Notes under the pieces: model-generated | What the model saw: the letters and a program-made list of their open reading frames with translations, nothing else | Databases searched by the model: none | What the model was told of the DNA's origin: nothing | Assembly: GCA_964394145.1 (NCBI GenBank) | Contig: CAYMVL010000033.1 | Location: 711-64,710, forward strand | Length of the DNA: 64,000 nt | DNA from: an uncultured Dehalococcoidales bacterium | GTDB lineage: Bacteria > Chloroflexota > Dehalococcoidia > GIF9 > AB-539-J10 | Reading direction: 5' to 3' | Made by a program: the position numbers and the translations under genes | In this document: in pieces, positions 37,683-59,870 of the stretch | Layout of the letters: the number at the start of each line of letters is the position of its first letter | How positions within the stretch are numbered: the stretch's first letter is position 1

Positions 37683-37784
37683 ATGAAAGTTATTCTACTG
37701 CTTCTTTTCACAATTGGACTCATTAGCGTCGGCCTGTTGACACTCATCATTAATGTGCAATATAATGTCGTCTTTGTACTATGA
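37683..37784 (+). CDS. Possible small hydrophobic peptide (33 aa; single TM) translationally coupled to cooC
   Basis: The ORF MKVILLLLFTIGLISVGLLTLIINVQYNVVFVL ends in an ATGA overlap with the cooC ATG at 37781. The RBS is weak. The track shows a longer GTG-initiated version from 37602. Confidence 0.2.
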   Translation: MKVILLLLFTIGLISVGLLTLIINVQYNVVFVL

Positions 37785-38545
37785 AAATCGCCGTTAGCGG
37801 TAAAGGAGGGACAGGCAAGACTATGCTAGTGTCCTTCCTTTCTGTTGTATTCGCCAAATCTGGCTATTCCGTTATTGCAATAGATGCCGATCCGAATGTA
37901 AATCTAGCGGATAGTTTTGGTTTTCCCGATTCCGAGAAGATAATACCAATATCCAAAATGGATGACCTTATAGAAGAAAGGACAGGGGCGAGGCCCGGTC
38001 AGATGGCGCCCTATTTCAAACTAAATCCGAAAGTTGATGACCTGCCTGATAAGTGCTCTCTCAGATATGACGGAATCAGGATAATGGTGATGGGACCAAT
38101 TAAGGCGGCTGGAAGCGGCTGTTACTGTCCTGAAGGCGCTTTGCTTGAAGCCTTAGTTGCCCATTTGCTACTCAGAATTGACGAAATGGTTATTCTGGAT
38201 ATGGAGGCCGGGATAGAGCATCTGACGCGTGGCACTGCTAAGGGAGTGGATAAGTTAATTATAGTGGTCGAACCGACCAAGAAGAGCATTCTCACAGGCT
38301 ATAGAGTTAGAGATTTAGCTCTGGAGATAGGATTAAATAGCATCGGAGTAGTGGGCAATAAGATTCGGAACGAGAAAGAGAAGGATTTCCTTATTTCGAA
38401 TATGGCTGGTTTCGAATTCCTCGGATTCATTCCTTATGACGAAGGCATCGCAGAAGCGGACATTTCAGGTTTGCCTCTTATCGATTCCAGCGAAAAAGTT
38501 ATGACTGAAGTCAAAAACATTGCTGCCCGGCTTATTAATGGGTGA
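37781..38545 (+). CDS. cooC: CooC/AcsF-family Ni-insertion ATPase (MinD/ParA fold), copy 1
   Basis: The product contains MKIAVSGKGGTGKT (a deviant Walker A) and a CxC motif (GSGCYCPE) typical of CooC. It is the first gene of the CODH/ACS cluster. Confidence 0.8.
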   Translation: MKIAVSGKGGTGKTMLVSFLSVVFAKSGYSVIAIDADPNVNLADSFGFPDSEKIIPISKMDDLIEERTGARPGQMAPYFKLNPKVDDLPDKCSLRYDGIRIMVMGPIKAAGSGCYCPEGALLEALVAHLLLRIDEMVILDMEAGIEHLTRGTAKGVDKLIIVVEPTKKSILTGYRVRDLALEIGLNSIGVVGNKIRNEKEKDFLISNMAGFEFLGFIPYDEGIAEADISGLPLIDSSEKVMTEVKNIAARLING

Positions 38546-38577
38546 GCTAGTAAGTAAATAAAAGGAAGGTGAACATT

Positions 38578-40341
38578 ATGGCGTACGATGCGACTAAGAT
38601 GAAGGACTGGCAGATTTCAGAAGCGGCCGAAGAGACAATGCCAACTCCTGACGAGTGGCGAGAGAAGCTAGACTTACAGAAGGATGAGATTATTCCTTTT
38701 GGAAGGCTAAGTCGGCTTGATTTCATGAAGATAATTGAGCGCCTCAAAGACAGGCCAGATGGCAAATATATTGAGGTAACTGCCATAACCCCGACACCAT
38801 TGGGGGAAGGCAAAACGACGACTTTGATGGGAATCCTGGAAGGTTTAGGCAAGCGAGGTGTCAATGTGGGCGGTGCCATTCGCCAACCATCGGGTGGCCC
38901 CACCATGAATATTAAAGGAACTGCTGCGGGTGGGGGCAATGCTCTTCTGATTCCTATGACCGAATTCTCGATGGGTCTAACTGGCGACATCAACGATATC
39001 GCCAATGCCCATAACCTGGCTATGGTAGCGCTTACTGCTAGAATGCAGCATGAGCGGAACTACGATGACGATGAGTTAGCCAAGCGTACGAAGATGCGAC
39101 GGCTGGGCATCGACCCCACTCGAGTGGAGATGGGCTGGGTCATGGATTTCTGCGCCCAGAGCCTGAGGAATATTATTATAGGGCTTGGTAGTCGCATGGA
39201 CGGCTATGCGATGCAGTCCAGATTCGGTATCACTGTGAGCTCGGAGATCATGGCGATGCTGTCCATCGTGAGCGACCTGGCAGACTTGCGCAAGAGGATG
39301 GATGAAATTACTGTAGCTTTTGACAAGAAAGGTAACCCTGTTACTACACGTGACTTGGAGGTCGGGGGCGCCATGACTGCCTGGGTGCGTAATACTATTA
39401 ATCCTACATTGATGTGTACAGTTGAACATCAGCCATGCATGGTACATGCGGGTCCGTTTGCCAATATTGCTGTGGGCCAGTCCTCTATTATAGCCGACCG
39501 CATCGGGCTAAAGATGTTCGATTATCATGTCACGGAGAGCGGCTTCGCCGCAGACATTGGTTTCGAGAAGTTCTGGAATGTGAAATGCCGCTACAGCGGC
39601 CTCAAGCCGCACGTATCGGTACTTACTGCCACTATCAGGGCGTTGAAGATGCATGGTGGTGGGCCTAAGGTGGTAGCCGGCCTGCCGCTGCCCGAGTCTT
39701 ATACGAAGGAGGACCTGGGTCTCCTGGAGAAAGGTATTCCTAATATGCTGCATCACATCAACACCATCAGGACATCAGGCATCAATCCTGTAGTATGCAT
39801 TAATAGCTTCCCTACAGATACTAAGGAAGAGATTGCCATGGTTCGAAAGGCAGCTGAGGCAGCTGGAGCGAGATGCGCTGTTTCCTCCCATTGGGCTGAT
39901 GGCGGCGATGGTGCCCTGGAGTTGGCTGATGCGATTAAGGATGCTGCAGAAAGCAAGACTGATTTCAAATTCCTCTATCCTATGGAAATGAAACTGCGGG
40001 AACGTGTGGATAGGATTGCCAAGGTAGTCTATGGGGCTGACGGAGTGACATGGAGCCCTGAGGCTGAAGCCAAGGCCAAGTCATTCGAGGCTGATTCCAA
40101 ATATGATGAGTACGCCACCATGATGGTGAAAACACACCTGAGTCTGACACATGATCCGACCATAAAGGGCACCCCAAAGGGATGGTTACTGCCGATTCGT
40201 GACGTGCTGATTTATTCCGGAGCGAAGTTCCTCTGTCCATGTGCTGGTAGCATAAGCCTGATGCCGGGAACCAGCTCTGATCCAGCCTTTCGAAGGGTGG
40301 ATGTCGATACGAAAACGGGCAAGGTTAGCGGGCTTTTCTAA
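38578..40341 (+). CDS. fhs: Formate--tetrahydrofolate ligase
   Basis: The product contains [16 protein letters not shown] (the FTHFS signature), followed by ...[10 protein letters not shown]...DIANAHNLA.... The ATG at 38578 is preferred because AAGGAAGGTG lies 7 nt upstream. Confidence 0.9.
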
Positions 40342-40417
40342 AAGGCAATAGACATGGCTGGGCCTCACCTAGGAATGTATTACCTGGGCGTTACAGCGAA
40401 CCCTCCCTTTAAGGAAG

Positions 40418-41092
40418 ATGCTGACGGTGAGGATATTGGAAGAAACAGAGATTGTCTCTCTAACTATTGATGGAAAGCAAGTAAGGGCTGCTAAGGATGA
40501 GAAGATATTATGGGCAGCTTTAGATAATGGTATCTATATTCCCAACCTCTGTGGCATTCGCGACAGGAATCAGCCTTCTGCTTCCTGTCGCCTGTGCTTT
40601 GTGGAGCTAGAAGGGAAGCGTGCTCCGGTTACAGCCTGCACCACTACCGTAGCCGATGGCATGGTAGTCAATACCAAGGGGGAGAGAGCTTCAAGGCTAG
40701 CTCGGGGCTCTTTCGAGTTATTGTTGTCCAACTTGCCTTTGGACTGTGCTCATTGCCCCAAAAGTGGTTCCTGCGAGATTCAGAAGATTGCCAAGCACTT
40801 ACGCGTGAGGCTGAACTCAAAGCGGTTCAGAAAGACGCCGCGCGACTTACCGATAGACTCCAGCAGCCCTGTATTCATCTATGACCCTAATAAATGCGTG
40901 CTGTGTGGCAGGTGCGTTTGGGTATGTGAGGAAAAACTGGGGATAGGAGCAATTGGTTTCGCTCATCGCGGCTTCGAGCGCATGGTTACGACATTTGGAG
41001 GTGAGCCAATCGGCCAGTCCAGTTGTAAAGGTTGTGGCGATTGCGTAAATGTGTGTCCCTCTGGTGCCTTGCTATTCAAGGAGAAGAATTGA
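40418..41092 (+). CDS. Standalone NuoG/HndD/FdhA N-terminal-like iron-sulfur protein (2Fe-2S plus atypical 4Fe-4S plus two ferredoxin-type 4Fe-4S clusters; no catalytic domain)
   Basis: The 224-aa product has C-x12-C-x2-C-x13-C (CGIRDRNQPSASCRLCFVELEGKRAPVTAC), a plant-type 2Fe-2S pattern. It has PLDCAHCPKSGSCEIQ (the NuoG-type HxxxCxxCxxxxxC cluster, with N in place of H). It also has CVLCGRCVWVCEE and CKGCGDCVNVCP, and ends after the ferredoxin domain. Confidence 0.7.
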   Translation: MLTVRILEETEIVSLTIDGKQVRAAKDEKILWAALDNGIYIPNLCGIRDRNQPSASCRLCFVELEGKRAPVTACTTTVADGMVVNTKGERASRLARGSFELLLSNLPLDCAHCPKSGSCEIQKIAKHLRVRLNSKRFRKTPRDLPIDSSSPVFIYDPNKCVLCGRCVWVCEEKLGIGAIGFAHRGFERMVTTFGGEPIGQSSCKGCGDCVNVCPSGALLFKEKN

Positions 41093-41146
41093 CAGGCAGT
41101 CTGTTTTTCCTGTAGACTATTGGACTTTGATTTAAGGGAGTGAAAG

Positions 41147-42028
41147 ATGGTTGTAATAGGAGAGAACATACACATCATTGCCAAGGCGGTAAATGATGCA
41201 GTAAAAGCCCGAAACCCGAGGCCGATTCAGGATTTAGCTGTGGCTCAGGCTGAACATGGAGCTGATTACATAGACTTGAATCTGGGCTACTGCAGGAAGG
41301 ATCCGTCCATCATGGCATGGGCAGTTAATATAGTTCAAGAAGTTGTTGATCTGCCCTTGTCCATAGATACTATGAACCCAGTAGCTATGGAGGAGGGTCT
41401 TAAGGCTTGCCAGAGGAGGCCTTTACTTAATTCTGCCTCAGGGAAGAGCGATTCAAAGGAAGAAATGCTTCCACTGGCTAAGAAATACGATTGCGATGTG
41501 GTCATTTCCTGCATTAACGATAAAGGCATGCCGGCTGAGGGTTATTCAAAGCTAGATAGTATTATGGATACCGTAGCCTATGCCAATGAACTGGGAATCC
41601 CAAACGAGAGGATATGGGCTGATCCCATAGTCCTTCCTGCAAGCACGGCTGGAGAGGGACAAAAGAATGCCATAGCAACTTATGAGTTTATAGAGATGCT
41701 GCCCCAGGCTTTACCAGAGACCCATTCACTGGTGGGCCTTTCCAATATATCTAATGGAGCACCTGAGGTAAATAGGCCGTATCTCAACCGTGTTTACCTT
41801 GTTATGATGGGCAGGAAGGGATTGGGCGCTTCGATCCACGATGCTCTCGACGAAAACATAATGAAGCTTGCAAAAGGTGAGGATCAGGCTCTAATTGACC
41901 TTATCTACAGGACGATGGATGGAGATGAGGGAGATTTGATGGCGCTCACCGAGGAAGAAATAAACTACATCAAGACGGTAAAGGTCCTTACGGGTGAGGT
42001 CCTTTATTCGGATGCTTGGCTTGAGTAG
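41147..42028 (+). CDS. acsE: Methyltetrahydrofolate:corrinoid/iron-sulfur protein methyltransferase (MeTr), pterin-binding DHPS-like barrel
   Basis: The product begins MVVIGENIHIIAK (compare the AcsE xxIGERIN motif) and contains ...ADYIDLNLG... as a pterin-binding TIM barrel. It is 293 aa and lies directly upstream of the CFeSP small subunit gene. Confidence 0.75.
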   Translation: MVVIGENIHIIAKAVNDAVKARNPRPIQDLAVAQAEHGADYIDLNLGYCRKDPSIMAWAVNIVQEVVDLPLSIDTMNPVAMEEGLKACQRRPLLNSASGKSDSKEEMLPLAKKYDCDVVISCINDKGMPAEGYSKLDSIMDTVAYANELGIPNERIWADPIVLPASTAGEGQKNAIATYEFIEMLPQALPETHSLVGLSNISNGAPEVNRPYLNRVYLVMMGRKGLGASIHDALDENIMKLAKGEDQALIDLIYRTMDGDEGDLMALTEEEINYIKTVKVLTGEVLYSDAWLE

Positions 42029-42042
42029 GAGGTAAAGTAAAG

Positions 42043-42975
42043 ATGGAATATAGACCGCCTGTCGAATCTAATACCGGGGTAGTCAATGAGGTAACCCTGG
42101 GCAAGCCAGGGGGGAAAACAATAAGAGTTGGAGGGGAAAATATCATGCCCTTCCATTTTTTTGATGAAGGTTCGTGGCCAAACCCTCCGGTGTTTGCACT
42201 ACAGATATTAGATAGGGAGCCGCCTCAGGATTTGCCTGGCTTTCTTTATGAGCCCTTCAAGGATGTGGTTCAGGACCCAGCCCAGTGGGCTAAGAAGGTG
42301 GAGGGATTAGACTATGTAGATGCGATCGAACTTTATCTTATGTCTACTGACCCCGCCGACCTTGATACAGGTCCTGAAAGAGCAGCTGAAGTGTCAAGAA
42401 AGGTGGCAGAGGCAACAAGCCTGCCTTTGATTATTTACGGCTGCGGCGATCCTGATAAGGACGCCAAGACTCTTCCCGCAGTCTGTGAAGCAGTTCATGG
42501 CATGCATTACTTGATAGGTCCGGTGCAGAAGGAGAACTATGAACCTTTGGGGAAGGCAATTCTAGACCATGATTTGTATCTCAGTGCTCAAACCCCAATG
42601 GATATTAATTTGCTAAAGGAATTGAATGTTAAGCTGGGACATTTTACTCCCCTGGAAAGGATAATCATTGACCCGATATCACCGGCTTTAGGGTATGGAA
42701 TAGAATACACTTATAGTCTGATGGAGCGTGTCAAGCAGCTTGGCGAGATTACTAAGGATAAGACGACCATGATGCCTATGATTGCTGATTTTGCTACCGA
42801 GGTTTGGAGGACTAAGCAGGCCAGGGAAAGTGAACAGCAGGGTTTGGTCTGGGAGGCTATGACCTCGTTTATGCTTCTTCAAGCCGGGGCGAATATTGTC
42901 ACACATCGATATTACAAGTCGATAAAGTTGGTAAAAGAAATGTATGAAAGCGAGGTGCAACAATGGCAGAAGTAG
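42043..42975 (+). CDS. cdhD: Corrinoid iron-sulfur protein small subunit (ACDS delta subunit)
   Basis: The 310-aa TIM-barrel protein lies in the conserved position before cdhA. Its size and composition match AcsD/CdhD. It has no Fe-S motif, as expected for this subunit. Confidence 0.7.
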   Translation: MEYRPPVESNTGVVNEVTLGKPGGKTIRVGGENIMPFHFFDEGSWPNPPVFALQILDREPPQDLPGFLYEPFKDVVQDPAQWAKKVEGLDYVDAIELYLMSTDPADLDTGPERAAEVSRKVAEATSLPLIIYGCGDPDKDAKTLPAVCEAVHGMHYLIGPVQKENYEPLGKAILDHDLYLSAQTPMDINLLKELNVKLGHFTPLERIIIDPISPALGYGIEYTYSLMERVKQLGEITKDKTTMMPMIADFATEVWRTKQARESEQQGLVWEAMTSFMLLQAGANIVTHRYYKSIKLVKEMYESEVQQWQK

Positions 42976-45272
42976 TTAAGGAACTCACCAGAAAGGAAGA
43001 AGAAGTCCGCCATCTGATCAGGGCGGAAATTCCCTGGGAGCCTGTCGGTCCCACTCCGATGCCCGAGATTCCTACTCTGAGATCTTGGGATATGAGGTTG
43101 CTTAAGACGTATAGCCCGTGGTACGCCCCATTCTGTGACCTCTGTTGCTTTTGCACCTATGGTAAATGTGACCTCTCTCAGGGAAGGAGAGGAGCCTGCG
43201 GGCTGGATATAGCCACTCAACAGGCAAGATTTATTCTTATCGCCTGTCTCATGGGATGCTCAGCTCATGCTGGCCATGCTGGCCATATTGTCGAGTATTT
43301 GATTGATAAGTATGGGCCTGATAAGAAAATTGATCTGGGTACATATATCGAGCTTACAGCACCAAATATTATGACGGTGACTGGCTTGAAACCCGAGACC
43401 CTGGGTGATCTTAAGACTGTCATAGAGTATGTATACAAGGAAGTCACCCACCTTCTGGATTCTACACATTTTGGGCAGGAAGGAAGTTACCTGGATTATG
43501 AGTCTAAAGCGTTGCACGCTAGTATGCTGGACCACGTTGGTATGGAGGTTGCCGACATCGCTCAGATTGTGGGGTTCAATTTCCCCACTTCTGTAGCTGA
43601 TACGCCTCTGGTAGATATGGGATGGGCCTCAGTTGATGAGTCTAAACCGGTGATATTGCTTGTCGGGCATAATCCAGCGACTTCAACTACTATTGTGGAT
43701 TACTTGAGGGAGAATGACTTTTATGACAAGGTCGAGATAGCCGGCATCTGCTGCACGGCACTTGAAACCACAAGATATTCTGACAGGGCAAAGGTCATAG
43801 GTCCTTTGTCCAGGCAGCTTTTCTACGTCAGGACAGGAATTGCCGATGTTATCGTAACTGACGAACAGTGTATCAGAACTGATATGCCTATACAGGCAGA
43901 TGCTGTCGGATCAAGGGTTATTGCCACTCTGGATAAAGCCATGTATGGCCTTGAGGATGCTACCGAATGGGATACAGAAGAAATCGTGAAACAGATGGTG
44001 GAGGATAAGAAACATTTCGCTATCTTAGATACTAGGAAGGCGGCGGAGGTGGCGACGAAGGTAGCTATGGCAATTGCTCCCCAGAGGACAAAGAAGTGGC
44101 TAACTAAAGATGAAGCAATAGAGCTTTCAAAGAAATGTACCAATTGTGGAGTGTGCGAGTGGGTATGCCCCAACCTTATTAAGATAGGCGATGGTATAAC
44201 TGAACTTGCGAAAGGCAATGTTGAATTGCTGGCAAAGCAGTTCAATGAATGTATTGGTTGTGGTAAATGTGACCAAGAATGCCCCTTGAAAGTTCCCATC
44301 TTTAAGATAATGCAGGCAGCAGCCAGCATGGAGACGTGGAAGATAAGAGCTGGGCGTGGCGCAGTAATGGACACCGAAATAAGAAAGGTGGGAGCACCTA
44401 TAACTCTTGGCACAATCCCTGGCGTTCTGGCCTTCGTTGGCTGTAGCAACTATCCTGATATCGATGATGTTGCCGATATGGTGTATGAATTTGCCAAGAG
44501 GAAATATATTGTGACTCTAACTGGATGCGCGGCTATGGTCGCCGGAATGAAGAAATTTGAGGACGGCAAGACTGTATACGAGCTATTTCCTCCCGATTTT
44601 GATGCTGGAGGGGTAGTCAACATTGGCTCCTGTGTATCTAATGCTCATATTAGTGGGGCTGCAATAAAGATAGCCAATATCTTTGCTGCGTTACCGTTGC
44701 GCGCTAATTACGAGGTGATGGCGGATTATGTCCTTAACCGAGTAGGTGCCTGTGGCGTAGCCTGGGGAGCTATGTCTCAGAAGGCGGCTTCCATCGGCAC
44801 AGGTTTTAACAGGTTGGGTATCCCGGTGCTACTGGGACCGCACTCCTCCAAGTATAGAAGACTGTTCCTTTCCAGAAAGGAAGAAGACGACTGGAGCGTC
44901 ATGGACGCCAGGAAAAGGGAAATTGTTGACAGCGGGGAGCCCTCTCCCGAACACCTGGCTTATGTGGCAGAGACGAAAGAGAAGGCAATGGTGATGATAC
45001 CCAAGCTATGTATAAGAAAGAACGATACCCCGCAAGGCAGGTCGATAAAGCTCAATCACTATATCTCTTTATACAAGAAATATATGGGCCCTGGGCTTCC
45101 TGAAGATATCCACCTGTTTATCAGGAGGGATGCTGATATTCCTCTGGTTTATAAGAAAGAAGTAAGAGAATACCTGAAGCAAATTGACTGGCAGCCTAAG
45201 GATCCTGTGGGACTTCCAACGTTAATCGGGACTTATCCCACTAAGGTTCCTTTAGATGCTGTTATACATTAA
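42963..45272 (+). CDS. cdhA: Ni-CO dehydrogenase catalytic subunit, archaeal ACDS alpha type (with inserted 2x[4Fe-4S] ferredoxin domain)
   Basis: The 769-aa product has the N-terminal motif PFCDLCCFCTYGKCDL (the B/D-cluster Cys motif shared with CdhA). The VLLVGHNP region follows. An internal ferredoxin insert (CTNCGVCEWVCP...CIGCGKCDQECP) is characteristic of archaeal CdhA and absent from bacterial CooS/AcsA, which are about 630 aa. Confidence 0.8.
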   Translation: MAEVVKELTRKEEEVRHLIRAEIPWEPVGPTPMPEIPTLRSWDMRLLKTYSPWYAPFCDLCCFCTYGKCDLSQGRRGACGLDIATQQARFILIACLMGCSAHAGHAGHIVEYLIDKYGPDKKIDLGTYIELTAPNIMTVTGLKPETLGDLKTVIEYVYKEVTHLLDSTHFGQEGSYLDYESKALHASMLDHVGMEVADIAQIVGFNFPTSVADTPLVDMGWASVDESKPVILLVGHNPATSTTIVDYLRENDFYDKVEIAGICCTALETTRYSDRAKVIGPLSRQLFYVRTGIADVIVTDEQCIRTDMPIQADAVGSRVIATLDKAMYGLEDATEWDTEEIVKQMVEDKKHFAILDTRKAAEVATKVAMAIAPQRTKKWLTKDEAIELSKKCTNCGVCEWVCPNLIKIGDGITELAKGNVELLAKQFNECIGCGKCDQECPLKVPIFKIMQAAASMETWKIRAGRGAVMDTEIRKVGAPITLGTIPGVLAFVGCSNYPDIDDVADMVYEFAKRKYIVTLTGCAAMVAGMKKFEDGKTVYELFPPDFDAGGVVNIGSCVSNAHISGAAIKIANIFAALPLRANYEVMADYVLNRVGACGVAWGAMSQKAASIGTGFNRLGIPVLLGPHSSKYRRLFLSRKEEDDWSVMDARKREIVDSGEPSPEHLAYVAETKEKAMVMIPKLCIRKNDTPQGRSIKLNHYISLYKKYMGPGLPEDIHLFIRRDADIPLVYKKEVREYLKQIDWQPKDPVGLPTLIGTYPTKVPLDAVIH

Positions 45273-45372
45273 TCTTGCTGCTTTGGAGCAAAAGGGAGAG
45301 GGAAAGAGGTAGCAAAAATTGAATACGATTTTATTTGGTTTTCAGGCTTAAGTCTGAAAAAGGAGGATAAAG

Positions 45373-45930
45373 ATGGCGATGATACCGACTCATAGGGTAA
45401 ACGTCCTGACAGGGATAAAGTCAGCGAGGATCGTAGAGGATGCCTCTCAGTACGCTGGCTACATCCGAACGGCAAGAAGGCCTCTTCTTGTGATTGGGCC
45501 CATGCTCGAAAAATGGTCGCTTGATGGAAAGTTCGCAATCGAATATGCGCTTGAGATAGCTAAGTCGGGCAATATTCCTGTATGTGCTACGGCGACTACC
45601 AGAAAGAAGGTCATGGAACTGGGTGTGGAGCCTGATAGCGCGCTTGACGCCGTGGAAGTAGTGAACCACCTCAAAGACCCTGGATGGCAAGGGGTCAAGA
45701 AACAGGGAAATCACGATTTGGTTATCTTCTTTGGCATCAGGAGCGACATGGAAGAGCAGATGCTTTCTGTGCTGAAACATTTCGCTTATAAACATTTAAA
45801 GACCATGACTCTGGACAAGTATTATTTCCCCCATGCCAATTATTCCCTTCCCAATATGCCCAAAACTGAAAAGTGGCAGGCATTCTTAGAGGATTTGATA
45901 GCTAATTTGCAGGCAAAGTCTAAAAAATAA
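45373..45930 (+). CDS. cdhB: ACDS epsilon subunit (CdhB-like)
   Basis: The 185-aa ORF sits between cdhA and cdhC, exactly where archaeal cdhB sits. Its size matches. It has no Fe-S motifs, as expected. The assignment is by synteny and size only. Confidence 0.55.
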   Translation: MAMIPTHRVNVLTGIKSARIVEDASQYAGYIRTARRPLLVIGPMLEKWSLDGKFAIEYALEIAKSGNIPVCATATTRKKVMELGVEPDSALDAVEVVNHLKDPGWQGVKKQGNHDLVIFFGIRSDMEEQMLSVLKHFAYKHLKTMTLDKYYFPHANYSLPNMPKTEKWQAFLEDLIANLQAKSKK

Positions 45931-45944
45931 GGAGGCATAAATAT

Positions 45945-47180
45945 ATGGAATGGCATTCAGATGTTGGACCACAATATGAGGGTGAGGTTATCAGGAAGGC
46001 GGATATGTGGATTGAGTTTGGCGGTCCTAAGGTGCCCGCAGGGAGCAAACTGGAGTTTTGTCGCTTACGGAAGCCGGAGCAAATTGAGCACGAAAAGGTT
46101 GAGCTTATAGGTCCCGATATAGATACAATGGAGGAAGGGGGAAGCTACCCTCTCGGTATCTTAGTTGAAATCTATGGAGAGCAACTTGATGAGGATGCAG
46201 TACCAATCCTTGAGCGAAGAATTCACATGTTCTCAAGCTATATCGAGGGCTGGTACCATATGAATCAGAGAGGGGATATATGGATAAGGTTGAACAAGGA
46301 CTGTGGGAAGAGGGGATGGAAGTCATTAAAGGAGTATGGCGAAATACTCAATTTCCTCTACACCTCTGAGATGGATATAATACAGAAGATTCAAGTTACG
46401 CTTATTACTGATCCGGAAGCAATACAGAAGCTGTATCCTGAGGCTAAAGCAGCCTACGAAGCTAGAGATGCCAGGGCGTTAACCCTGAATGATGAAGATG
46501 TGGATACGTTTTATGGCTGTGTGCTTTGCCAGAGCTTCGCACCCACGCATATTTCCATCATAACCCCTAATAGAATCGCCAATTGTGGGGCCATAAATTG
46601 GTTCGACGGCAGGGCAGCAGCTAAGATCGATCCCGAGGGACCGATATTTGCCGTGCCCAAGGGTAAACTGATTGACCCCATAAGGGGTGAATATGAGGGG
46701 GCAAATAAGACAGAGTATGAGAGGTCTTTAGGGACTTATGATAGGGTTTATCTCTATAGCGCCTTCGAGCATCCTCATACTTCCTGTGGCTGCTTTGAAG
46801 CTATTGTCTTCTATATTCCTGAAGTTGACGGCTTTGGGATAGTGGATAGAGAATTCAAAGGTCCAACTGTAACCGGAGAGACTTTTTCGCACATGGCCGG
46901 TGACACATCGGGCGGAAGGCAGGTGGAGGGTAGATTGGGCACTGGCCTGGAGCAAATGCGATCTCCAAAATTTATCCAGGCAGACGGAGGAAGAAGGAGG
47001 GTGGTCTGGATGCCTAAGGTAATAAAGGAAAGATACAGGGAACCATTTGAAAAAGACGGGGTATACGATAAGATACCCACAGAAGAAGATGTTAAGAACA
47101 CAGATGAACTACTGGCTTATCTGGAGGAGCATCAGCATCCGTGGATAAAGGGCGAAGTTGAGCTTCCGGAGTTGCCTTAG
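45945..47180 (+). CDS. cdhC: Acetyl-CoA synthase catalytic subunit, short archaeal-type (ACDS beta, A-cluster)
   Basis: The product contains YGCVLCQSF...ANCG (Cys ligands of the [4Fe-4S] part) and HTSCGCFE (the Cys-Gly-Cys motif that binds the proximal and distal Ni). It is 411 aa and lacks the long N-terminal domains of the bacterial AcsB, which is about 730 aa. Confidence 0.8.
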   Translation: MEWHSDVGPQYEGEVIRKADMWIEFGGPKVPAGSKLEFCRLRKPEQIEHEKVELIGPDIDTMEEGGSYPLGILVEIYGEQLDEDAVPILERRIHMFSSYIEGWYHMNQRGDIWIRLNKDCGKRGWKSLKEYGEILNFLYTSEMDIIQKIQVTLITDPEAIQKLYPEAKAAYEARDARALTLNDEDVDTFYGCVLCQSFAPTHISIITPNRIANCGAINWFDGRAAAKIDPEGPIFAVPKGKLIDPIRGEYEGANKTEYERSLGTYDRVYLYSAFEHPHTSCGCFEAIVFYIPEVDGFGIVDREFKGPTVTGETFSHMAGDTSGGRQVEGRLGTGLEQMRSPKFIQADGGRRRVVWMPKVIKERYREPFEKDGVYDKIPTEEDVKNTDELLAYLEEHQHPWIKGEVELPELP

Positions 47181-47225
47181 TCTTGTTTTTTGGAAATAAA
47201 GTTTAAGTAGTAAGGAAGGTTTGTT

Positions 47226-48635
47226 ATGCCAGTTTCAGGAACCGCGTTGATAAAGATGCTTCCTAACAGGAAGGGGTGTAAGGATTGTGGTTTTCCTACC
47301 TGCTTTGCATTTGCTATGAAGTTAGCTTCTGGAGGGACTACTGTAGATAAATGTCCTTATCTTGACGAAGATACCAAAGCTAAAATAAATGACCTTCTAG
47401 CACCTCCGCAAAAGCTTGTAACCGTAGGCTCAGGAGATAATAAGTACGAAATTGGGAACGAAGAGGTAGTCTATCGCCATGACAAGACTTTCGTGCATGA
47501 GCCTGCCATTGCTTTGCTTGTGTCGGATAAGGAGAATGACGAGGAAATAGAGAGAAAGATAAAGAAGATACAGGAAGTGCACTATCCTTGGGTGGGCTTG
47601 ACTCTGCATGCAGACCTTCTAGCTCCTCACTTTGAATCGGGGGACAAAACGAAATTTTTGGCTTTGGTAAAGAGACTCTGCGATTCTACAAATGCAGGTA
47701 TGGTTCTTATCTCGGAAGACACGGACGTTCTATTTGCGGCCAGGGATATCTGCGGCGATAGAAATCCTTTGATTTATCCCATAACAAAGGAGAATATAGA
47801 TATTGCGATACCGAAACTCAAGGAGAAACCCACCGCAATAGGGATTCGTGCAGAGGGCGTAGAACAACTCATACCTTTGACTACTAAGCTGAAGGATGCT
47901 GGGCTTGACCATCTTGTTATGGACCCTGGCTCCAAGGGTATAATTGAGGCACTTAGGGATCAAACGTTTATTAGGAGGGCAGCTTTAAAAACCGGCTTCA
48001 AAGCTCTCGGTTATCCAACCATAGCTTTCCCGTGTTTCATAAACAAAGATGGGCTAAAGGAAATGCTGGCTGCCTCTATGTTTGTAGATAAGTATGCCGG
48101 TATCATCGTCCTTTCCGATCTCAATCCTAATTACATGTTGCCCTTGCTGGTGCAACGGCTCAATATTTATACCGACCCACGCTTCCCCATGTCTGTGGAG
48201 CAGAAATATTATGAGATAGGACAGCCTACTGAGGAGTCCCCTGTTCTCATGACTTCGAATTGGTCTTTGACGTATTTCGTCGTGGCATCAGCCATTGAGG
48301 CTACTAAAGTGCCTTGTTTCCTTCTGGTGCAAGATGCGGAGGGGCTTGGTGTTCTCACTGGTTGGGCTGCGGGTAAGATAAGCGGAGATACTGTGGGCAA
48401 GCTTGTTAGGACCTGTGGTATTGAAGAGAGAGTGAAGCACAGGCAGCTGGTGATTCCAGGAAGAATAGCTCGAATTTCGGGTGAGACTATGGACGCTCTG
48501 GATTGGAAATGGGAAGTGACAGTTGGGCCCAGGGAATCAACCGCAATAGGAGCTTTCCTCCCTAAATATGCCAAAGAACTTAAGGAAAAGATAGCTGCCG
48601 GCAAGGGAATTCCAGCAGAAGTGGAAAATGAGTGA
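47226..48635 (+). CDS. cdhE: Corrinoid iron-sulfur protein large subunit (ACDS gamma)
   Basis: The N-terminal motif CKDCGFPTCFAFAMKLASGGTTVDKCPY (C-x2-C-x4-C-x16-C, a [4Fe-4S] site) is typical of AcsC/CdhE. The product is 469 aa. A TIM barrel plus a B12-binding-like region follow. Confidence 0.8.
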   Translation: MPVSGTALIKMLPNRKGCKDCGFPTCFAFAMKLASGGTTVDKCPYLDEDTKAKINDLLAPPQKLVTVGSGDNKYEIGNEEVVYRHDKTFVHEPAIALLVSDKENDEEIERKIKKIQEVHYPWVGLTLHADLLAPHFESGDKTKFLALVKRLCDSTNAGMVLISEDTDVLFAARDICGDRNPLIYPITKENIDIAIPKLKEKPTAIGIRAEGVEQLIPLTTKLKDAGLDHLVMDPGSKGIIEALRDQTFIRRAALKTGFKALGYPTIAFPCFINKDGLKEMLAASMFVDKYAGIIVLSDLNPNYMLPLLVQRLNIYTDPRFPMSVEQKYYEIGQPTEESPVLMTSNWSLTYFVVASAIEATKVPCFLLVQDAEGLGVLTGWAAGKISGDTVGKLVRTCGIEERVKHRQLVIPGRIARISGETMDALDWKWEVTVGPRESTAIGAFLPKYAKELKEKIAAGKGIPAEVENE

Positions 48636-49182
48636 CCAGCAATCTATTGGAGAGCAAATAGATGATATCTTAACACCAAATAAAAGGGAGAGGAAGAATC
48701 TCATTTCCCTGCTGCAGCAAGTCCAGGACAGACTGGGTTATCTTCCCCGCGAAGCAATGCTAGAGGTAAGCAAGTTCCTCGGCGTAGCAGAAGTTCAAGT
48801 ATTTTCAGTAGCCACTTTTTATAACCAATTCAGAATGAAACCTGTAGGCAGGTATCCTGTCGAGGTCTGCATGGGTACTGCCTGCCATTTGAAAGGCGGG
48901 CAATTCATTCTAGAGGAATTTGAGAGGCAGCTGGGAATCAAGGTGGAGGAGACCACAACGGATGGCAATTTCAGCCTGCATAGGGTTGCCTGTATGGGTT
49001 GTTGTATGCTGGCTCCTGTGGTGAAGATGGGTGATAGGGCCCCGGTGATAAGAATTGGCAATAAACTCTATCCCAAGATGACACCTTTTAAGGTGGAAGA
49101 GGTTTTAATACCTTATAGAGCGGAAATTCGGCAAAAGCCAGGAGAAGAGCAAGTCGGAGCCGGGAAGCAAGAGAAACGTTGA
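48628..49182 (+). CDS. NuoE/HoxE/HndA-like thioredoxin-fold [2Fe-2S] protein
   Basis: The product contains CMGTACHLKGG and ACMGCCMLAPVV (the C-x4-C...C-x3-C pattern of the 24-kDa subunit). It is 184 aa and overlaps the downstream NuoF-like gene by 4 nt. Confidence 0.8.
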   Translation: MSDQQSIGEQIDDILTPNKRERKNLISLLQQVQDRLGYLPREAMLEVSKFLGVAEVQVFSVATFYNQFRMKPVGRYPVEVCMGTACHLKGGQFILEEFERQLGIKVEETTTDGNFSLHRVACMGCCMLAPVVKMGDRAPVIRIGNKLYPKMTPFKVEEVLIPYRAEIRQKPGEEQVGAGKQEKR

Positions 49183-51101
49183 CTTTAGCTGAGATCAAGG
49201 AAAAAGCCAGGGTGGAATGGGACGATTTACGGAGGGGTACTTATGTTACTATTGGCACAGCCACTTGTGGTCAGGCAGCAGGTGCCCTGGATACTGTCGC
49301 AGCTTTTGAGCAAGAGCTAAAGAAGCGTAATGCGGAGGCTAAGGTGGTTGAAGTTGGTTGCCTGGGATTATGTTATGCTGAGCCTCTAGTTACCATATTT
49401 AAGCCTGAATCTTTCGCTGTCGTGTATTGTAACGTCACGCCGCAGCTTGTCCCTCGGCTTATTGATGGTTACGTCCTAGGTGATGACCCCTGCCTTGAGC
49501 TTGCTTTAGGAACGCTTGATGGCGGAGAAGAAGGGGAAGCCCCTTATATCCCGGAATTGGCTAGATTTGAGAAGGAGTTGCGCATTGTAATGCGTCACTG
49601 TGGCTACATTGACCCGAAAAATATAAACCATTATATAGCTAATGGTGGTTATAGTGTCCTGGACAAGGCTCTTCATATGGAGCCTGAGGAGATAATTGGA
49701 GAAATTAAGCAGTCGGGTCTTCGGGGGCGGGGGGGGGCCGGGTTTCCTACGGGGCTGAAATGGGAGATAACTCGCGGTCAGTTGGCCGCACCTAAATATG
49801 TGGTATGCAATGGAGACGAAGGTGATCCCGGTGCTTTTATGGATCGCATTGTTTTGGAATCTGACCCGCATCAAGTTCTCGAGGGAATGATAATCGCGGG
49901 CTATGCCATAGGTGCTAAGGAGGGTTATATATATATTCGTGCTGAATATCCTCTGGCTATTGAGCGGGTGCAAATTGCCTTGAATCAAGCTAGGGAATTA
50001 GGTTTGCTTGGTAAACATATTCTGGGCACTGATTTTAGCTTCGATATTAATATAGCAGCAGGCGCCGGAGCTTTCGTTTCTGGTGAGGAAACAGGTCTGA
50101 TGGCAGCTATCGAAGGAAGGGAAAGCACCCCAAGGCCAAGGCCGCCTTACCCGGCCGAATCTGGATTGTGGGGCAAACCTACTGTTCTCAACAATGTAAA
50201 GAGTTTTTCGAATGCCACAGTGATAATGGATAAGGGAGCGAGCTGGTTTTCGTCTATTGGCACTGAACGAAGCACAGGGACGGCGTTATTTAGCCTAGCA
50301 GGTAAGATCAAGCGGCCAGGGCTTTGCGAAGTGCCTATGGGAACAACAATACATGATATTGTTTTCGATATTGGAGGCGGGATCCTCGATGATAGAGAAT
50401 TCAAGGCGGTGCAAATTGGGGGGCCGTCTGGAGGAATGATACCGGCAAGCCTGCAAGATACGCCAGTAGATTTCGATTCGTTGAAGTCAGTTGGCTCGAT
50501 GATGGGCTCAGGCGGATTCATTGTCATGAGCGAGGATGACTGCGTTGTTGATGCCGCTCGTTTCTTCCTTGATTTCACGACAAAGGAATCCTGTGGGCAA
50601 TGTACGCCATGTCGCCTCGGGACTTTGCAAATGCTTAGAACGCTTGAGGACATCACTGCCGGTAAGGGCAAAATTGAGGATATTGATTTTCTTCTTGAGC
50701 TAGCCGAGGATGTCAGAGACAGCGCCCTTTGCGCCCTGGGACAGACGGCTCCTAATCCCGTCCTTACCACAATTCGCTATTTCAGGGACGAATATGAAGA
50801 GCATATTCTACAAAAGAAATGCCGGGCAAAAGTCTGTACTAACCTTACTGCATACTATATTCTGCCTGACAAATGCGAGAGGTCTTGTGAGCATTGTGTG
50901 CTTACATGCCCAACTGAGGCGATTAAAGGAGGTACAGGAGAAGTTAAGCACATTGAGCAGGATAAGTGTGTTAACTGTGGCACTTGCCTGGACGTGTGCC
51001 CTCCTGAATATGACGCTGTAGTAAAATTGTCGCCTATTACCGAACTTCCGCCAGAAGATAAAGAAGCTAAGGAACGAGGCATAGCAGAACAGGTGGTATA
51101 A
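49179..51101 (+). CDS. NuoF/HndC/HydB-like NAD(P)H-binding flavoprotein with N-terminal thioredoxin-like [2Fe-2S] domain and C-terminal 2x[4Fe-4S] ferredoxin domain
   Basis: The product has GLRGRGGAGFPTGLKW (the FMN site). It has CGQCTPCRLGT (a NuoF-type N3-like cluster motif), CERSCEHCVLTCP and CVNCGTCLDVCP. The N-terminal part contains CGQAAGALD...CLGLCYAEP. The product is 640 aa. Confidence 0.85.
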   Translation: MTLAEIKEKARVEWDDLRRGTYVTIGTATCGQAAGALDTVAAFEQELKKRNAEAKVVEVGCLGLCYAEPLVTIFKPESFAVVYCNVTPQLVPRLIDGYVLGDDPCLELALGTLDGGEEGEAPYIPELARFEKELRIVMRHCGYIDPKNINHYIANGGYSVLDKALHMEPEEIIGEIKQSGLRGRGGAGFPTGLKWEITRGQLAAPKYVVCNGDEGDPGAFMDRIVLESDPHQVLEGMIIAGYAIGAKEGYIYIRAEYPLAIERVQIALNQARELGLLGKHILGTDFSFDINIAAGAGAFVSGEETGLMAAIEGRESTPRPRPPYPAESGLWGKPTVLNNVKSFSNATVIMDKGASWFSSIGTERSTGTALFSLAGKIKRPGLCEVPMGTTIHDIVFDIGGGILDDREFKAVQIGGPSGGMIPASLQDTPVDFDSLKSVGSMMGSGGFIVMSEDDCVVDAARFFLDFTTKESCGQCTPCRLGTLQMLRTLEDITAGKGKIEDIDFLLELAEDVRDSALCALGQTAPNPVLTTIRYFRDEYEEHILQKKCRAKVCTNLTAYYILPDKCERSCEHCVLTCPTEAIKGGTGEVKHIEQDKCVNCGTCLDVCPPEYDAVVKLSPITELPPEDKEAKERGIAEQVV

Positions 51102-51862
51102 TGGCTAGGAAAATCGTTTCTACTGGAAGAGGAGGATCAGGGAAATCAACTTTTGTCGCCTTGATTAGCAAGTACTTGAAACCACCAACGTTGCTTATTG
51201 ACCTCGACCCTGACCTTAGCCTTGCTGATATGCTCGGCATGGATTTTCGTAAGGAAGGGAAAAGGACGGTTTGCGAGGCACTTTATGATGTTGTTGAAAA
51301 AAGAAAAAGCAATGTAAGCCCAACAATCACAACGCACGAGATGATGGAAGGCATGCTATGGAGCGATTGCTTGTACGAAGGGGAAAAAACGGACATCATT
51401 AGCCTTGGAACAAAGTTAACTGAAGGCTGTCTTTGCGCTCCGGACGAGATACTCAGGAGAGCAATTCCCAAGCTCGCTAAGAATTACGCCAACCTTGTAA
51501 TAGACTCTCCAGCTGGAGTGGAACATCTGAATCGGAATGTAGTGTCGGACGTAAATGACCTTTTCGTTATATGCGACCCCTCTGATAAATCTCTGAAGCA
51601 CATACCGAGGATAAAAGAGATTATAAAGCAGGTGGGGATTAAGTATGGCCATCTGTATCTTGTGGCGAACTATGAGTGTAATGGAGAGGCAGAAAATTAT
51701 CTGCAGCAGGTAGGTGAAGTCTATTTGGGCAAGGTAGAGTATGATGCCGAACTGGCACAGTATAATCTGGAAGGCAAGTCGCTTCTGGATTTGCCGGAGG
51801 ATTCAGTCGCTTCTTTGTCAGTAAAAAGAATTTTAATTAAAGCCGGTTATGAGATTAGGTAG
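51101..51862 (+). CDS. cooC: CooC/AcsF-family ATPase, copy 2
   Basis: The product begins MARKIVSTGRGGSGKSTF and contains ...GCLCAPDE (CxC). It is 253 aa and is a paralog of copy 3. Its start is shared with the NuoF-like stop region. Confidence 0.75.
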   Translation: MARKIVSTGRGGSGKSTFVALISKYLKPPTLLIDLDPDLSLADMLGMDFRKEGKRTVCEALYDVVEKRKSNVSPTITTHEMMEGMLWSDCLYEGEKTDIISLGTKLTEGCLCAPDEILRRAIPKLAKNYANLVIDSPAGVEHLNRNVVSDVNDLFVICDPSDKSLKHIPRIKEIIKQVGIKYGHLYLVANYECNGEAENYLQQVGEVYLGKVEYDAELAQYNLEGKSLLDLPEDSVASLSVKRILIKAGYEIR

Positions 51863-52122: not shown

Positions 52123-52293
52123 ATGAGAGAGAAGCGACTATATTGGTGCCCTTTTTGCGAGCGTAACGTTTCCTTATGGAGGACAAAAGATAATAAACTA
52201 ATTTGTCCACGGTGTGGTAGAGAGGTGGTTTACATAACAAACGACGGTCGTATCGGGGCTATCAGAGGGAAGGAGGGGATTGCAAATAAATAG
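52123..52293 (+). CDS. Tiny zinc-ribbon protein (56 aa, two CxxC pairs)
   Basis: The product is MREKRLYWCPFCERNVSLWRTKDNKLICPRCGREVVYITNDGRIGAIRGKEGIANK. It is below the 60-aa ORF-track cut-off. It lies between two cooC paralogs, and its 3' end overlaps the start region of cooC copy 3. Confidence 0.4.
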   Translation: MREKRLYWCPFCERNVSLWRTKDNKLICPRCGREVVYITNDGRIGAIRGKEGIANK

Positions 52294-52297
52294 TAAG

Positions 52298-53077
52298 ATG
52301 ACTAGAGTAATTGTCTCTACCGGAAGGGGTGGAGTAGGCAAATCGACTTTCGCGGCTTTGGCTGGCAAGTACCTGGATCCTCCAAAGCTTTTGATAGATC
52401 TCGACCCCGACGAGAGCCTAGCTGATATGCTCGGGATAGAGCCGAAAGTGAGAGAGAAGACTATTTCGGGTGTACTATACGACGTTATAGAAGGAAATAG
52501 GGGCGCAGGGCGCACAGGCTACGGTCTCTTATCTGAAGTGATGCAATCTGTGGTATACAAAGGGGAAGGCTTTGATTTCATTGGTCTGGGCACAAAGTTC
52601 ACCGTGGGCTGTTATTGTGCCCCGGATGCAGTGCTGAAGGACTTGATCCCTAGTATAGCCAAGAATTACAGGGAGGTGGTAATAGACTCACCTGCCGGGC
52701 TTGAGCACTTTAATAGGAAAGTGGTGGTGGATATAGATGATCTATTCATAATTCTGGATCCATCGGACAAATCGATAAAGCATATAGAAAGAGTCAAGGA
52801 TATTGTTAGAGAAGTGAAAGTCAGCTATAATCATCTCTACCTCATAGGGAACTACAGGTTCACCGAGGAGACTGAAGAATATTTGAAGGACACTCGTGAA
52901 GTGTATTTAGGCAAAATAGACTACGATGCGGATGTAAAGCGATATAATTTAGAAGGGAGGTCTCTTATAGAATTGCCTGATGATTCTCCTGCCGCCCTTT
53001 GCGTAAGGAGGATTCTGGAGAAGGCAGGCTATACAATTACGTACGAAGATTTGAGATCAACCCGGATAATAGAGTAG
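52298..53077 (+). CDS. cooC: CooC/AcsF-family ATPase, copy 3
   Basis: The product begins MTRVIVSTGRGGVGKSTFAALAGKYL and contains ...GCYCAPDA. It is co-linear with copy 2 (compare LIDLDPDLSLADMLG with LIDLDPDESLADMLG). The ATG at 52298 is preferred over the track's TTG at 52280. Confidence 0.75.
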   Translation: MTRVIVSTGRGGVGKSTFAALAGKYLDPPKLLIDLDPDESLADMLGIEPKVREKTISGVLYDVIEGNRGAGRTGYGLLSEVMQSVVYKGEGFDFIGLGTKFTVGCYCAPDAVLKDLIPSIAKNYREVVIDSPAGLEHFNRKVVVDIDDLFIILDPSDKSIKHIERVKDIVREVKVSYNHLYLIGNYRFTEETEEYLKDTREVYLGKIDYDADVKRYNLEGRSLIELPDDSPAALCVRRILEKAGYTITYEDLRSTRIIE

Positions 53078-53117: not shown

Positions 53118-53849
53118 ATGAATGCACAAGTGCGAAAACCTTTTGAAGATGTCTTGGGATATCTTGAGGGGAAGAAGAAGATAGTGGTTATGGGATGTGG
53201 AGGATGCGCTACAATCTTCCATACTGGTGGTATACGAGATGTTGATGAGATGGCAGAGAAGCTTACGGAGGCGGGGAAGGAGGTAATAGGTAAAATCGGG
53301 CTACCTTTTGGGGTATTTACGTGCTATCTTCCCATGTCTTCTATGTTCCTGAATGAACACAGAAAGGAAATAGAGGAGTGCGATGCGATACTAATGCAGG
53401 CTTGTGGCGACGGGGCGCAGGCGGTGCGGGGCTATTTGGAGGATGAGTGGGGTATCGTCAAGCCGATATACCCATCTAACGATGCCCTTGGGTTTTCCAG
53501 TGGAGGTCCCAGTGATTTCAAGGAGGAATGTGGGGCATGTGGGGAGTGTGAGCTTGGGAAGACTTTTGGTATTTGTCCTTTCATACAGTGCCCTAAGGGG
53601 TTGCTTAATGGTCCCTGCGGTGGAACGACTGAAGAGGGTAAGTGCGAGGTGGATCCTACGCGAGACTGCGCTTGGGCTATGATTTATAAGAGGGCAGTAG
53701 AGCTTGGTGAGCTTGATCAGCTTCTGGACATAATTGAGCCGCATCATTGGAGTAAAAAAGTCCACCCAAGATCATTAACGGTTGAACCTATTGACCTTAT
53801 GGAGGAACTGAAGGGAACGAAGAGAGTCATAGAGGCACTAGGGCTATGA
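53118..53849 (+). CDS. metV: MetV-like Cys-rich protein (methylene-THF reductase C-terminal-domain family partner subunit)
   Basis: The 243-aa product contains GCGGCAT, CGACGECELGKTFGICPFIQCPKGLLNGPCGG and GKCEVDPTRDCAWAMIY. These resemble the Zn/Fe-S-binding MTHFR_C small subunit found next to metF in acetogens. AGGAGG lies 9 nt upstream. Confidence 0.6.
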   Translation: MNAQVRKPFEDVLGYLEGKKKIVVMGCGGCATIFHTGGIRDVDEMAEKLTEAGKEVIGKIGLPFGVFTCYLPMSSMFLNEHRKEIEECDAILMQACGDGAQAVRGYLEDEWGIVKPIYPSNDALGFSSGGPSDFKEECGACGECELGKTFGICPFIQCPKGLLNGPCGGTTEEGKCEVDPTRDCAWAMIYKRAVELGELDQLLDIIEPHHWSKKVHPRSLTVEPIDLMEELKGTKRVIEALGL

Positions 53850-55973: not shown

Positions 55974-55995
55974 GATTAATAAGCGAAAGGAATTT

Positions 55996-56919: not shown

Positions 56920-56941
56920 GTCTTGGAAAAAAGGAGGCATA

Positions 56942-57346: not shown

Positions 57347-57429
57347 TGGTCAGACGTTTGCTTAGCCAAGAAGATGAAAGGCAAAGATCCTCGGTGCGGC
57401 CTGAGGATAGGAATAGCTGAGGTAAGAGA

Positions 57430-58449: not shown

Positions 58450-58458
58450 GGTATAGAA

Positions 58459-59852: not shown

Positions 59853-59870
59853 GAAACAGGATCATGAAAA

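Follow-up and report, generated by a model that had tools for sequence, protein, structure and literature searches.

Within a 64,000-nucleotide stretch of DNA from an uncultured Dehalococcoidales bacterium (contig CAYMVL010000033.1, positions 711 to 64,710; "the window" hereafter means this whole stretch), 11 closely spaced or overlapping open reading frames (ORFs) on the + strand at 37781-51101 very probably include a hybrid six-subunit CO dehydrogenase/acetyl-CoA synthase (CODH/ACS), acsE-acsD-cdhA-cdhB-cdhC-acsC, set in a tetrahydrofolate (THF)-type Wood-Ljungdahl cluster of a Dehalococcoidia bacterium. All six features that define such a hybrid were found, namely a CdhA with its insert, CdhB, a short CdhC, AcsC together with AcsD, AcsE, and the gene order in a bacterial genome. 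Three features of the archaeal five-subunit acetyl-CoA decarbonylase/synthase (ACDS) are absent (the archaeal N-terminal region of CdhD, a corrinoid iron-sulfur protein (CoFeSP) free of AcsE, and the C-terminal tail of CdhC), as are two features of the bacterial AcsABCDE complex (a CooS-type AcsA, matched at 73 bits only, and an AcsB with an A1 domain). Synthesis or cleavage of acetyl-CoA is predicted for the complex, with ligand columns conserved except at Ser204 of CdhC, and its activity, cofactor use and direction are all predictions of this kind; the sequence does not tell whether the complex serves acetogenesis and autotrophy or, in the opposite physiological direction, the oxidation of acetyl-CoA.

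The original prediction, made without database searches, described the locus as a novel combination in which a bacterium runs a complete archaeal ACDS on folate chemistry. Its ORF coordinates, lengths, order and motifs agree with the ORF list of the window, except that the cluster was said to begin with formate-THF ligase; the order on the + strand is cooC, fhs, hoxU-like, acsE, delta, cdhA, cdhB, cdhC, gamma, nuoE-like and nuoF-like, so that cooC stands first and fhs second. The last two genes (48628-51101) were absent from that description. The combination itself is not new, since the hybrid type is already known and published, including from Chloroflexi (PMC6305446, PMC7325909, PMC9586279).

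Archaeal-type CODH and acetyl-CoA synthase subunits

Gene assignments were made by Pfam, NCBIfam and PDB searches with the window proteins. For comparison, 80 cdh loci (77 labeled archaeal) were retrieved from species-representative genomes with an alignment led by CdhA of Ca. Ethanoperedens, and homologs of every window protein were extracted from them; the loci cover GoM-Arc1, ANME-1, Methanosarcinales, Methanocellales, Methanobacterium, Bathyarchaeia, Asgard and other taxa. On this basis, CdhA, CdhB and CdhC classify as archaeal-type, because of their scores against hidden Markov models (HMMs), the two-[4Fe-4S] insert of CdhA, the missing N-terminal domain of AcsB, and a CdhC clade with 91% bootstrap support.

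The 769-amino-acid CdhA (42963-45272), the predicted alpha subunit of an archaeal-type Ni-CODH with an E/F-cluster ferredoxin insert, scored 1058 bits against TIGR00314 (cut-off 781) and 697-850 bits against archaeal PDB chains (best 8riu_A, 850), versus 73 bits over a partial stretch of Moorella AcsA. It is 45-57% identical to the CdhA sequences of the cdh loci. Among 78 of those sequences, from loci that are mostly archaeal, 30 Cys/His columns show conservation of 85% or more, and the window protein keeps all 30. The ferredoxin insert that had been read from the letters was recovered by the HMM scan, with the motif CxxCxxCxxxC occurring twice, at residues 392-402 and 430-440, and Fer4 domains at residues 389-444. 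Two other identities considered for the 769-residue protein, a hybrid-cluster protein and a CooS with an unrelated insert, were ruled out by the TIGR00314 score, the PDB scores and the conserved ligand columns.

Between cdhA and cdhC, as originally proposed for an epsilon-sized gene, lies cdhB (45373-45930), encoding a 185-residue epsilon subunit, an archaea-specific component, which matches PF02552 at 94 bits and passes the TIGR00315 equivalog (127 bits, cut-off 101). CdhC (45945-47180; 411 amino acids) starts 14 nucleotides beyond cdhB and aligns to residues 322-724 of the Carboxydothermus hydrogenoformans ACS, meaning that the N-terminal A1 domain of roughly 320 residues is absent, and it carries the SCGCFE nickel motif; the proposed short archaeal form of ACS with a CGC motif is thereby upheld. 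Its bit scores were 500-535 against Bathyarchaeia, 433 against Methanosarcina and 396 against C. hydrogenoformans. In a neighbor-joining tree to which a search of 1.8 billion cluster representatives contributed 64 further full-length sequences, CdhC falls in the 91%-supported clade, which has 66 tips and holds all 48 CdhC of the cdh loci and the Methanosarcina PDB chain; the C. hydrogenoformans ACS and most long-form AcsB representatives lie outside it. Neither the family scores of the three subunits nor the CdhC clade therefore place CdhA, CdhB and CdhC inside bacterial AcsA/AcsB clades.

The window CdhC ends about 9 residues past the folded core, while the CdhC of the cdh loci continue for 37-86 residues (median 58.5) beyond its end, so that the archaeal C-terminal tail is missing. 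An AlphaFold2 model computed from a shallow alignment was unusable (mean predicted local distance difference test score 52.5). Two Dehalococcoidia relatives, P0309 (609 amino acids) and P0318 (608 amino acids), are predicted CdhB-CdhC fusions with PF02552, PF03598 and PF19436, their CdhC parts being 76-77% identical to that of the window; the fusions may be genuine or may be artifacts of gene calling.

A bacterial corrinoid module in a bacterial host

The corrinoid-handling subunits were assigned to the other parent. The 310-residue delta, or small, subunit of the CoFeSP (42043-42975) aligns end to end, over residues 13-300 to residues 13-304, with the 310-amino-acid C. hydrogenoformans AcsD at 221 bits, and its scores against bacterial AcsD were 220 and 196 bits, versus at most 168 against 45 CdhD of the cdh loci. 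The gamma, or large, subunit (47226-48635; 469 amino acids) scored 349, 347 and 335 bits against bacterial AcsC (350, 349 and 336 in the PDB search) and at most 299 against CdhE of the cdh loci. In neighbor-joining trees on Kimura distances, with the loci of the genome scan as archaeal references, the PDB having yielded no archaeal CdhD or CdhE chains, and bootstraps from a numpy implementation, delta grouped with three bacterial AcsD references in 96 of 100 replicates and gamma with the bacterial AcsC references in 100 of 100. CdhD proteins of the cdh loci have a median of 75 extra N-terminal residues that the window delta lacks. One Bathyarchaeota B24 locus (L081:2372-4700) carries a second gamma/delta pair with a short, 300-residue delta beside a normal cdhC-cdhD-cdhE; in the delta tree this short delta stands outside the group formed by the window and bacterial sequences.

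A separate AcsE-type methyltransferase within the cluster, which had been claimed from the outset, was found at 41147-42028: this AcsE-like methyl-THF:corrinoid/FeS-protein methyltransferase, a bacterial-only subunit, matches PF00809, and its best PDB matches are the methyltransferases (MeTr) of C. hydrogenoformans (2yci, 163 bits, E 1e-46) and Moorella (2e7f, 154 bits, E 1e-44). No acsE homolog lies within 10 kb of the cdh genes in any of the 80 retrieved loci. Given the delta and gamma scores, the 96% and 100% bootstraps, the missing N-terminal extension and the absence of acsE from those 80 loci, the corrinoid module is assigned as AcsCDE, and not as CdhDE with AcsE added.

These results bear directly on the reading under which a complete archaeal five-subunit complex, CdhABCDE, was transferred to a bacterium and AcsE must service an archaeal CdhDE, as the original prediction held. 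Gene names alone would allow it, since Pfam and NCBIfam use one generic family (PF03599, PRK04452/PRK04165) for archaeal and bacterial delta and gamma subunits alike. We nevertheless regard it as highly improbable: the delta subunit has 310 residues versus 386-463 in archaeal loci and is without the archaeal N-terminal region, it reaches 155 bits on TIGR00381, the archaeal cdhD equivalog, below the cut-off of 253, bit scores and bootstraps place both subunits with bacterial AcsD and AcsC, and published trees conclude likewise (PMC6305446). The archaeal CdhDE thus falls away from the idea of a bacterial host running an archaeal ACDS on folate chemistry, while CdhABC and the folate side (Fhs, AcsE, MetVF) stand. 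Falling with it is the supposedly unusual meeting of AcsE with an archaeal-type CoFeSP; because delta and gamma classify as bacterial AcsD and AcsC, the AcsE-CoFeSP interface would be the ordinary, structurally solved bacterial one. The truly chimeric junction is instead, by this assignment, that of a bacterial CoFeSP (AcsCD) docking on an A1-less, archaeal-type CdhC.

A hybrid of this kind could also arise in the computer, if archaeal cdhABC DNA had been wrongly joined to bacterial DNA during assembly or binning, and labels on contigs of metagenome-assembled genomes (MAGs) can indeed mislead, as three loci labeled bacterial yet carrying fully archaeal-type clusters attest (L010, L039 and L065, with the labels Desulfobacteria, Eubacteriales and Ca. 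Sulfotelmatobacter). A chimeric assembly is very unlikely here, and the probability that we attach to any such artifact is close to negligible, because the same order recurs on independent contigs, the region is uniform in both GC content and GC skew, acsD runs 13 nucleotides into cdhA, and relatives come from Dehalococcoidia. NCBI and JGI both contain a CdhA of 100% identical sequence, and at least four contigs, which come from different samples and reach about 230 kb, carry the identical proteins in one and the same order. Only 45 nucleotides separate cdhC from the bacterial-type acsC. Relatives at 72-91% CdhA identity are labeled Dehalococcoidia bacterium, those with 78-81% CdhA identity have the same gene order, Dehalococcoidia MAGs are the source of more than 120 related protein clusters, and the arrangement is common to hundreds of MAG relatives in that class. 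The bacterial host originally proposed is accordingly well founded, both in these labels on near-identical and related proteins and in the neighboring genes plsY, miaA, uvrA and thyX, which fit a bacterium. As for the three loci labeled bacterial, their cdh genes are entirely archaeal-type, with a long CdhD and without acsE, and the gene order of L065 is typical of Bathyarchaeia; misbinning of archaeal contigs, or transfer of the complete archaeal complex, may account for them.

The locus adds a further case of an enzyme type that has been published and is already on record for its lineage, Chloroflexi/Dehalococcoidia. Suzuki et al. (2018) described archaeal CdhABC with bacterial AcsCDE in NPL-UPA2 Unc8, Ca. 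Desulforudis audaxviator and Chloroflexi RBG_13_51_36, with a nuoEF set beside the Unc8 cluster (PMC6305446), Merino et al. (2020) reported the operon acsED-cdhABC-acsC (PMC7325909), and Colman et al. (2022) found the same hybrid in type II Acetothermia, with bacterial CdhABC, including those of Chloroflexi, forming one clade (PMC9586279). All three papers cite Adam et al. (2018), the primary source for hybrid complexes, and Suzuki et al., citing that work, attribute the origin of the hybrid to transfer from Euryarchaeota (PMC6305446). The published hybrids, which also include Ca. Hakubanella, have the same six subunits with the same split between archaeal CdhABC and bacterial AcsCDE, the same order, and a bacterial host with THF-branch genes, and nuoEF adjoins the cluster in Unc8. 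We see no difference in kind between them and the present cluster; we regard Ser204, the loss of the CdhC tail and the additional hoxU-like and cooC genes as details of the lineage.

Each parental system shares a different part of the cluster. With the archaeal ACDS (Methanosarcina, PDB 3cf4 and 9c0q-t) it has in common the E/F insert of CdhA, CdhB, an A1-less CdhC and CooC-like neighbors; it differs in that the corrinoid protein is AcsCD, AcsE is present, the methyl donor route is folate-based (Fhs, MetVF), and both the C-terminal tail of CdhC and the N-terminal tether region of CdhD are missing. With the bacterial CODH/ACS (Moorella thermoacetica, C. hydrogenoformans and Clostridium autoethanogenum; PDB 1mjg, 7zkj, 9fzy, 4djd and 2h9a) it shares AcsC, AcsD, AcsE, a THF-dependent methyl branch and the transfer from methyl-THF to Co(I), whereas its CODH consists of CdhA and CdhB in place of a CooS-type AcsA and its ACS is without A1.

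By analogy with both parents, methyl-THF would be made by Fhs, FolD (encoded elsewhere) and MetF, and AcsE would hand the methyl group to the cobalt of AcsCD as in Moorella, a bacterial reaction for which structures exist (PDB 4djd, 2ycl). The methylated AcsCD would then dock on the A3 domain of CdhC, while CO would reach CdhC in the archaeal manner, by a tunnel from CdhA in a CdhA2B2 assembly, with the CODH Rossmann domain in place of A1; CdhC would join CO, methyl group and CoA to acetyl-CoA, the reverse direction also being possible. A 2026 preprint on the Methanosarcina ACDS reports that the CoFeSP binds mainly via CdhD, CdhE's N-terminal domain and the A3 domain of ACS, that the bacterial contact between A1 and CdhD is simply missing in archaea, and that CdhA, CdhC and CdhD have disordered termini by which the supercomplex is tethered (PMC13370988). 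Because CdhC is without its C-terminal tail and AcsD without the archaeal N-terminal region, the tethered supercomplex is probably not formed here, and the arrangement may be a non-tethered one with freely exchanging CoFeSP.

Several points weigh against the assignment as a functional hybrid CODH/ACS. AcsE scores below the NCBIfam cut-offs (215 bits on NF005719, cut-off 259), and the bacterial references in the CoFeSP trees numbered three per subunit, all from Firmicutes, and were PDB-alignment sequences lacking a few terminal residues. Bootstraps inside the archaeal-type CdhC clade are only 12-23%, too low to fix where bacterial CdhABC attaches within Archaea; the highest identities are to Bathyarchaeia. 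Neither folD nor fdh was found within the window or in the 5.8 kb past its right end, which bears on the completeness of the pathway. Ser204 replaces a Cys ligand of the A-cluster, so that normal ACS activity is assumed and not certain. Finally, hybrid complexes are without biochemistry, as stated in PMC6305446 and PMC7325909.

Ser204 and the NuoEF/HoxU-like module

What is less ordinary about the locus is a clade-wide Cys-to-Ser exchange at a cubane ligand, the loss of the archaeal disordered tethers, and a HoxEFU/NuoEF-like module in the operon, with most of the interest carried by the Ser204 variant and by a link between NuoF and CdhB. Ser204 of CdhC (codon TCC, 46554-46556) stands where the [4Fe-4S] cubane of the A-cluster has its third Cys ligand in the family, the motif being C-x2-C-x8-S-x9-C here and C-x2-C-x8-C-x9-C in the family. 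Counted along the ACS alignment, it aligns with Cys517 of C. hydrogenoformans, which is Cys518 in the Moorella numbering, the ligand identities being those established for the Moorella structure. Ser stands at this position in all 120 of the 120 closest (Dehalococcoidia) relatives, and Cys in 113 of 115 diverse archaeal and bacterial family members (117 of 118 in a second count). CdhC retains the Cys-Gly-Cys that binds Ni and the three remaining cubane Cys, and no compensating Cys is universally conserved in the protein. No mention of the substitution was found in the literature searched.

Downstream of acsC, and overlapping its end, follow a gene for a NuoE/HoxE-like [2Fe-2S] protein (48628-49182; PF01257, 159 bits) and one for a NuoF/HoxF-like FMN/NAD(H)-binding protein with a C-terminal 2x[4Fe-4S] region (49179-51101; PF01512, PF10589 and Fer4; 477 bits on TIGR01959, below its cut-off). 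Between fhs and acsE lies a gene for a HoxU-like protein, resembling the N-terminal part of NuoG, with putative [2Fe-2S] and [4Fe-4S] electron-transfer centers (40418-41092; Fer2_4, NADH-G_4Fe-4S_3 and Fer4 domains), which reaches 177 bits on the HoxU model NF005745, below the cut-off of 333.

The association of these genes with the CODH recurs in relatives. In two relatives nuoE and nuoF follow acsC, and in a third only nuoE does before synteny breaks. The first two, with 79-81% CdhA identity (L087:15562-21805 and L088:15696-22012), have acsC-nuoE-nuoF-cooC followed by HoxY/HoxH-like [NiFe]-hydrogenase small and large subunits and a HycI protease; in the window, the HoxE/F/U-like genes occur without hydrogenase subunits in the cluster, and two CooC-like genes stand at the equivalent position. 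Two Bathyarchaeia loci (L060:14178-16649 and L064:7517-9988) encode, between cdhA and cdhC, an 823-residue NuoF-like protein fused to a C-terminal CdhB (PF02552, residues 636-802), which is preceded by NuoE and a HoxU-like/FrhB fusion (L060:12261-13712), and the window NuoF is 50-51% identical to the NuoF-like part, with the same domain architecture. An ANME-1 locus (L020:2652-6510) has NuoE, NuoF and HoxU-FrhB genes upstream of cdhA. No mention of the CdhB-NuoF fusion was found in the literature searched.

The closest solved CdhA belongs to the alpha2-epsilon2-zeta2 CODH of Ca. Ethanoperedens thermophilum (PDB 8riu), to which an F420-reductase subunit encoded in the operon is bound, at the interface of alpha and epsilon, giving a precedent for an operon-encoded redox module (PMC11493965). 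That add-on is FrhB-like, while the extra genes here are NuoE-, NuoF- and HoxU-like, of the FMN/NAD(H) type, and their binding to CdhAB is a conjecture. The NuoE-, NuoF- and HoxU-like genes look functionally tied to the CODH, which we treat as a lead and not as a result; the gene fusion hints that the flavoprotein module docks on the CODH, and the NuoF-CdhB fusions in Bathyarchaeia suggest CdhB as the docking site. It is conceivable, if doubtful, that the Dehalococcoidia hybrid is mechanistically distinct from both parents, with a cubane held by three Cys and Ser204 and thereby retuned, the tethers lost, and electrons exchanged between CdhAB and NAD(H) via a HoxEFU/NuoEF-like module docking at CdhB, in some relatives also with H2.

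On another reading, the cluster would be real and its ACS unconventional, with Ser204, the lost tethers and the NuoEF/HoxU module indicating a shifted function, for example mainly NAD(H)-linked oxidation of CO or acetyl-CoA, or altered redox tuning. Such a shift is favored by Ser204, shared by 120 of 120 relatives against Cys elsewhere in the family, by nuoE and nuoF after acsC in relatives, by the Bathyarchaeia fusion, and by the known case of a reductase module added to CdhAB (PMC11493965). We nonetheless consider it unlikely, because Cys-Gly-Cys and the three other cubane Cys are kept, and AcsE, AcsCD and a full set of methyl-branch genes are co-encoded, which is sensible only if methyl transfer at the A-cluster operates. 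Ser can, moreover, itself act as an Fe-S ligand. A hybrid CODH/ACS of the published type is thus the reading that we retain, and it poses three questions for biochemistry: the docking of a bacterial CoFeSP on an A1-less CdhC, Ser ligation of the A-cluster cubane, and NAD(H)-linked CODH activity via the NuoEF-like module.

The wider Wood-Ljungdahl neighborhood

The value of the locus lies also in its being a well-assembled reference, on a contig of more than 200 kb, that brings together a hybrid CODH/ACS, two MetF systems, three CooC-type maturases and the HoxEFU-like module. The first cooC (37781-38545) encodes a CooC/AcsF-type Ni-insertion P-loop ATPase (PF01656 CbiA, E 1e-18) that is 36-45% identical to CooC-like proteins encoded beside archaeal cdh operons. 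The formate-THF ligase gene fhs (38569-40341) is as originally named (PF01268, 699 bits; NF010032, 1073 bits, cut-off 938). Upstream of cooC, a promoter-like site (TTGACA, 18 nucleotides, TATAAT; 37737-37766, + strand) matches the sigma-70 consensus at 12 of 12 positions; the total of such sites in the region is not above shuffle expectation, so that this one stands as a consensus match only. It ends 15 nucleotides before the cooC ATG and would give that gene a very short leader, with no space for a normal ribosome-binding site.

The co-directional Wood-Ljungdahl gene neighborhood extends downstream beyond 51101, all on the + strand. A second CooC-like ATPase (51101-51862; AAA_31, CbiA) is 41-46% identical to CooC-like proteins of Bathyarchaeia cdh operons, and a third (52280-53077) was assigned by domain search and comparison with genes of the cdh loci. 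There follow metV (53118-53849; PF12225, 100 bits), metF for methylene-THF reductase (53913-54782; PF02219, 133 bits), and, within 54813-57819, a sensor histidine kinase with a predicted cyclic nucleotide-binding (cNMP) domain, a second metF (about 55996-56919) and two single-domain response regulators. In the remainder (57886-64000) lie genes for a ferredoxin, for HdrC-like and HdrB-like proteins, and for an HdrA/GltD-like fusion flavoprotein that is cut off by the end of the window; in the full contig this flavoprotein has 1486 residues, with mvhD, a second metV and a DUF3786 gene behind it. Two methylene-THF reductase systems thus adjoin, one metV-metF and the other a second metF with Hdr-like genes, and it is unusual that a two-component system is lodged between their metF genes.

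Rfam and tRNA scans of the window gave no matches, and at E 1e-5 no Pfam match was obtained for a 465-residue ORF (28144-29541, +), a 192-residue ORF (11171-11749, +) or two minus-strand ORFs (60066-60971 and 61004-61552), the last two being probably not genes, because they lie inside the long HdrA-like ORF of the + strand. Among the housekeeping genes named originally, uvrA, miaA and hflX are present in the window; of gatCAB, gatC and gatA are there in the upstream order gatC-plsY-gatA, with plsY between them and no gatB next to them.

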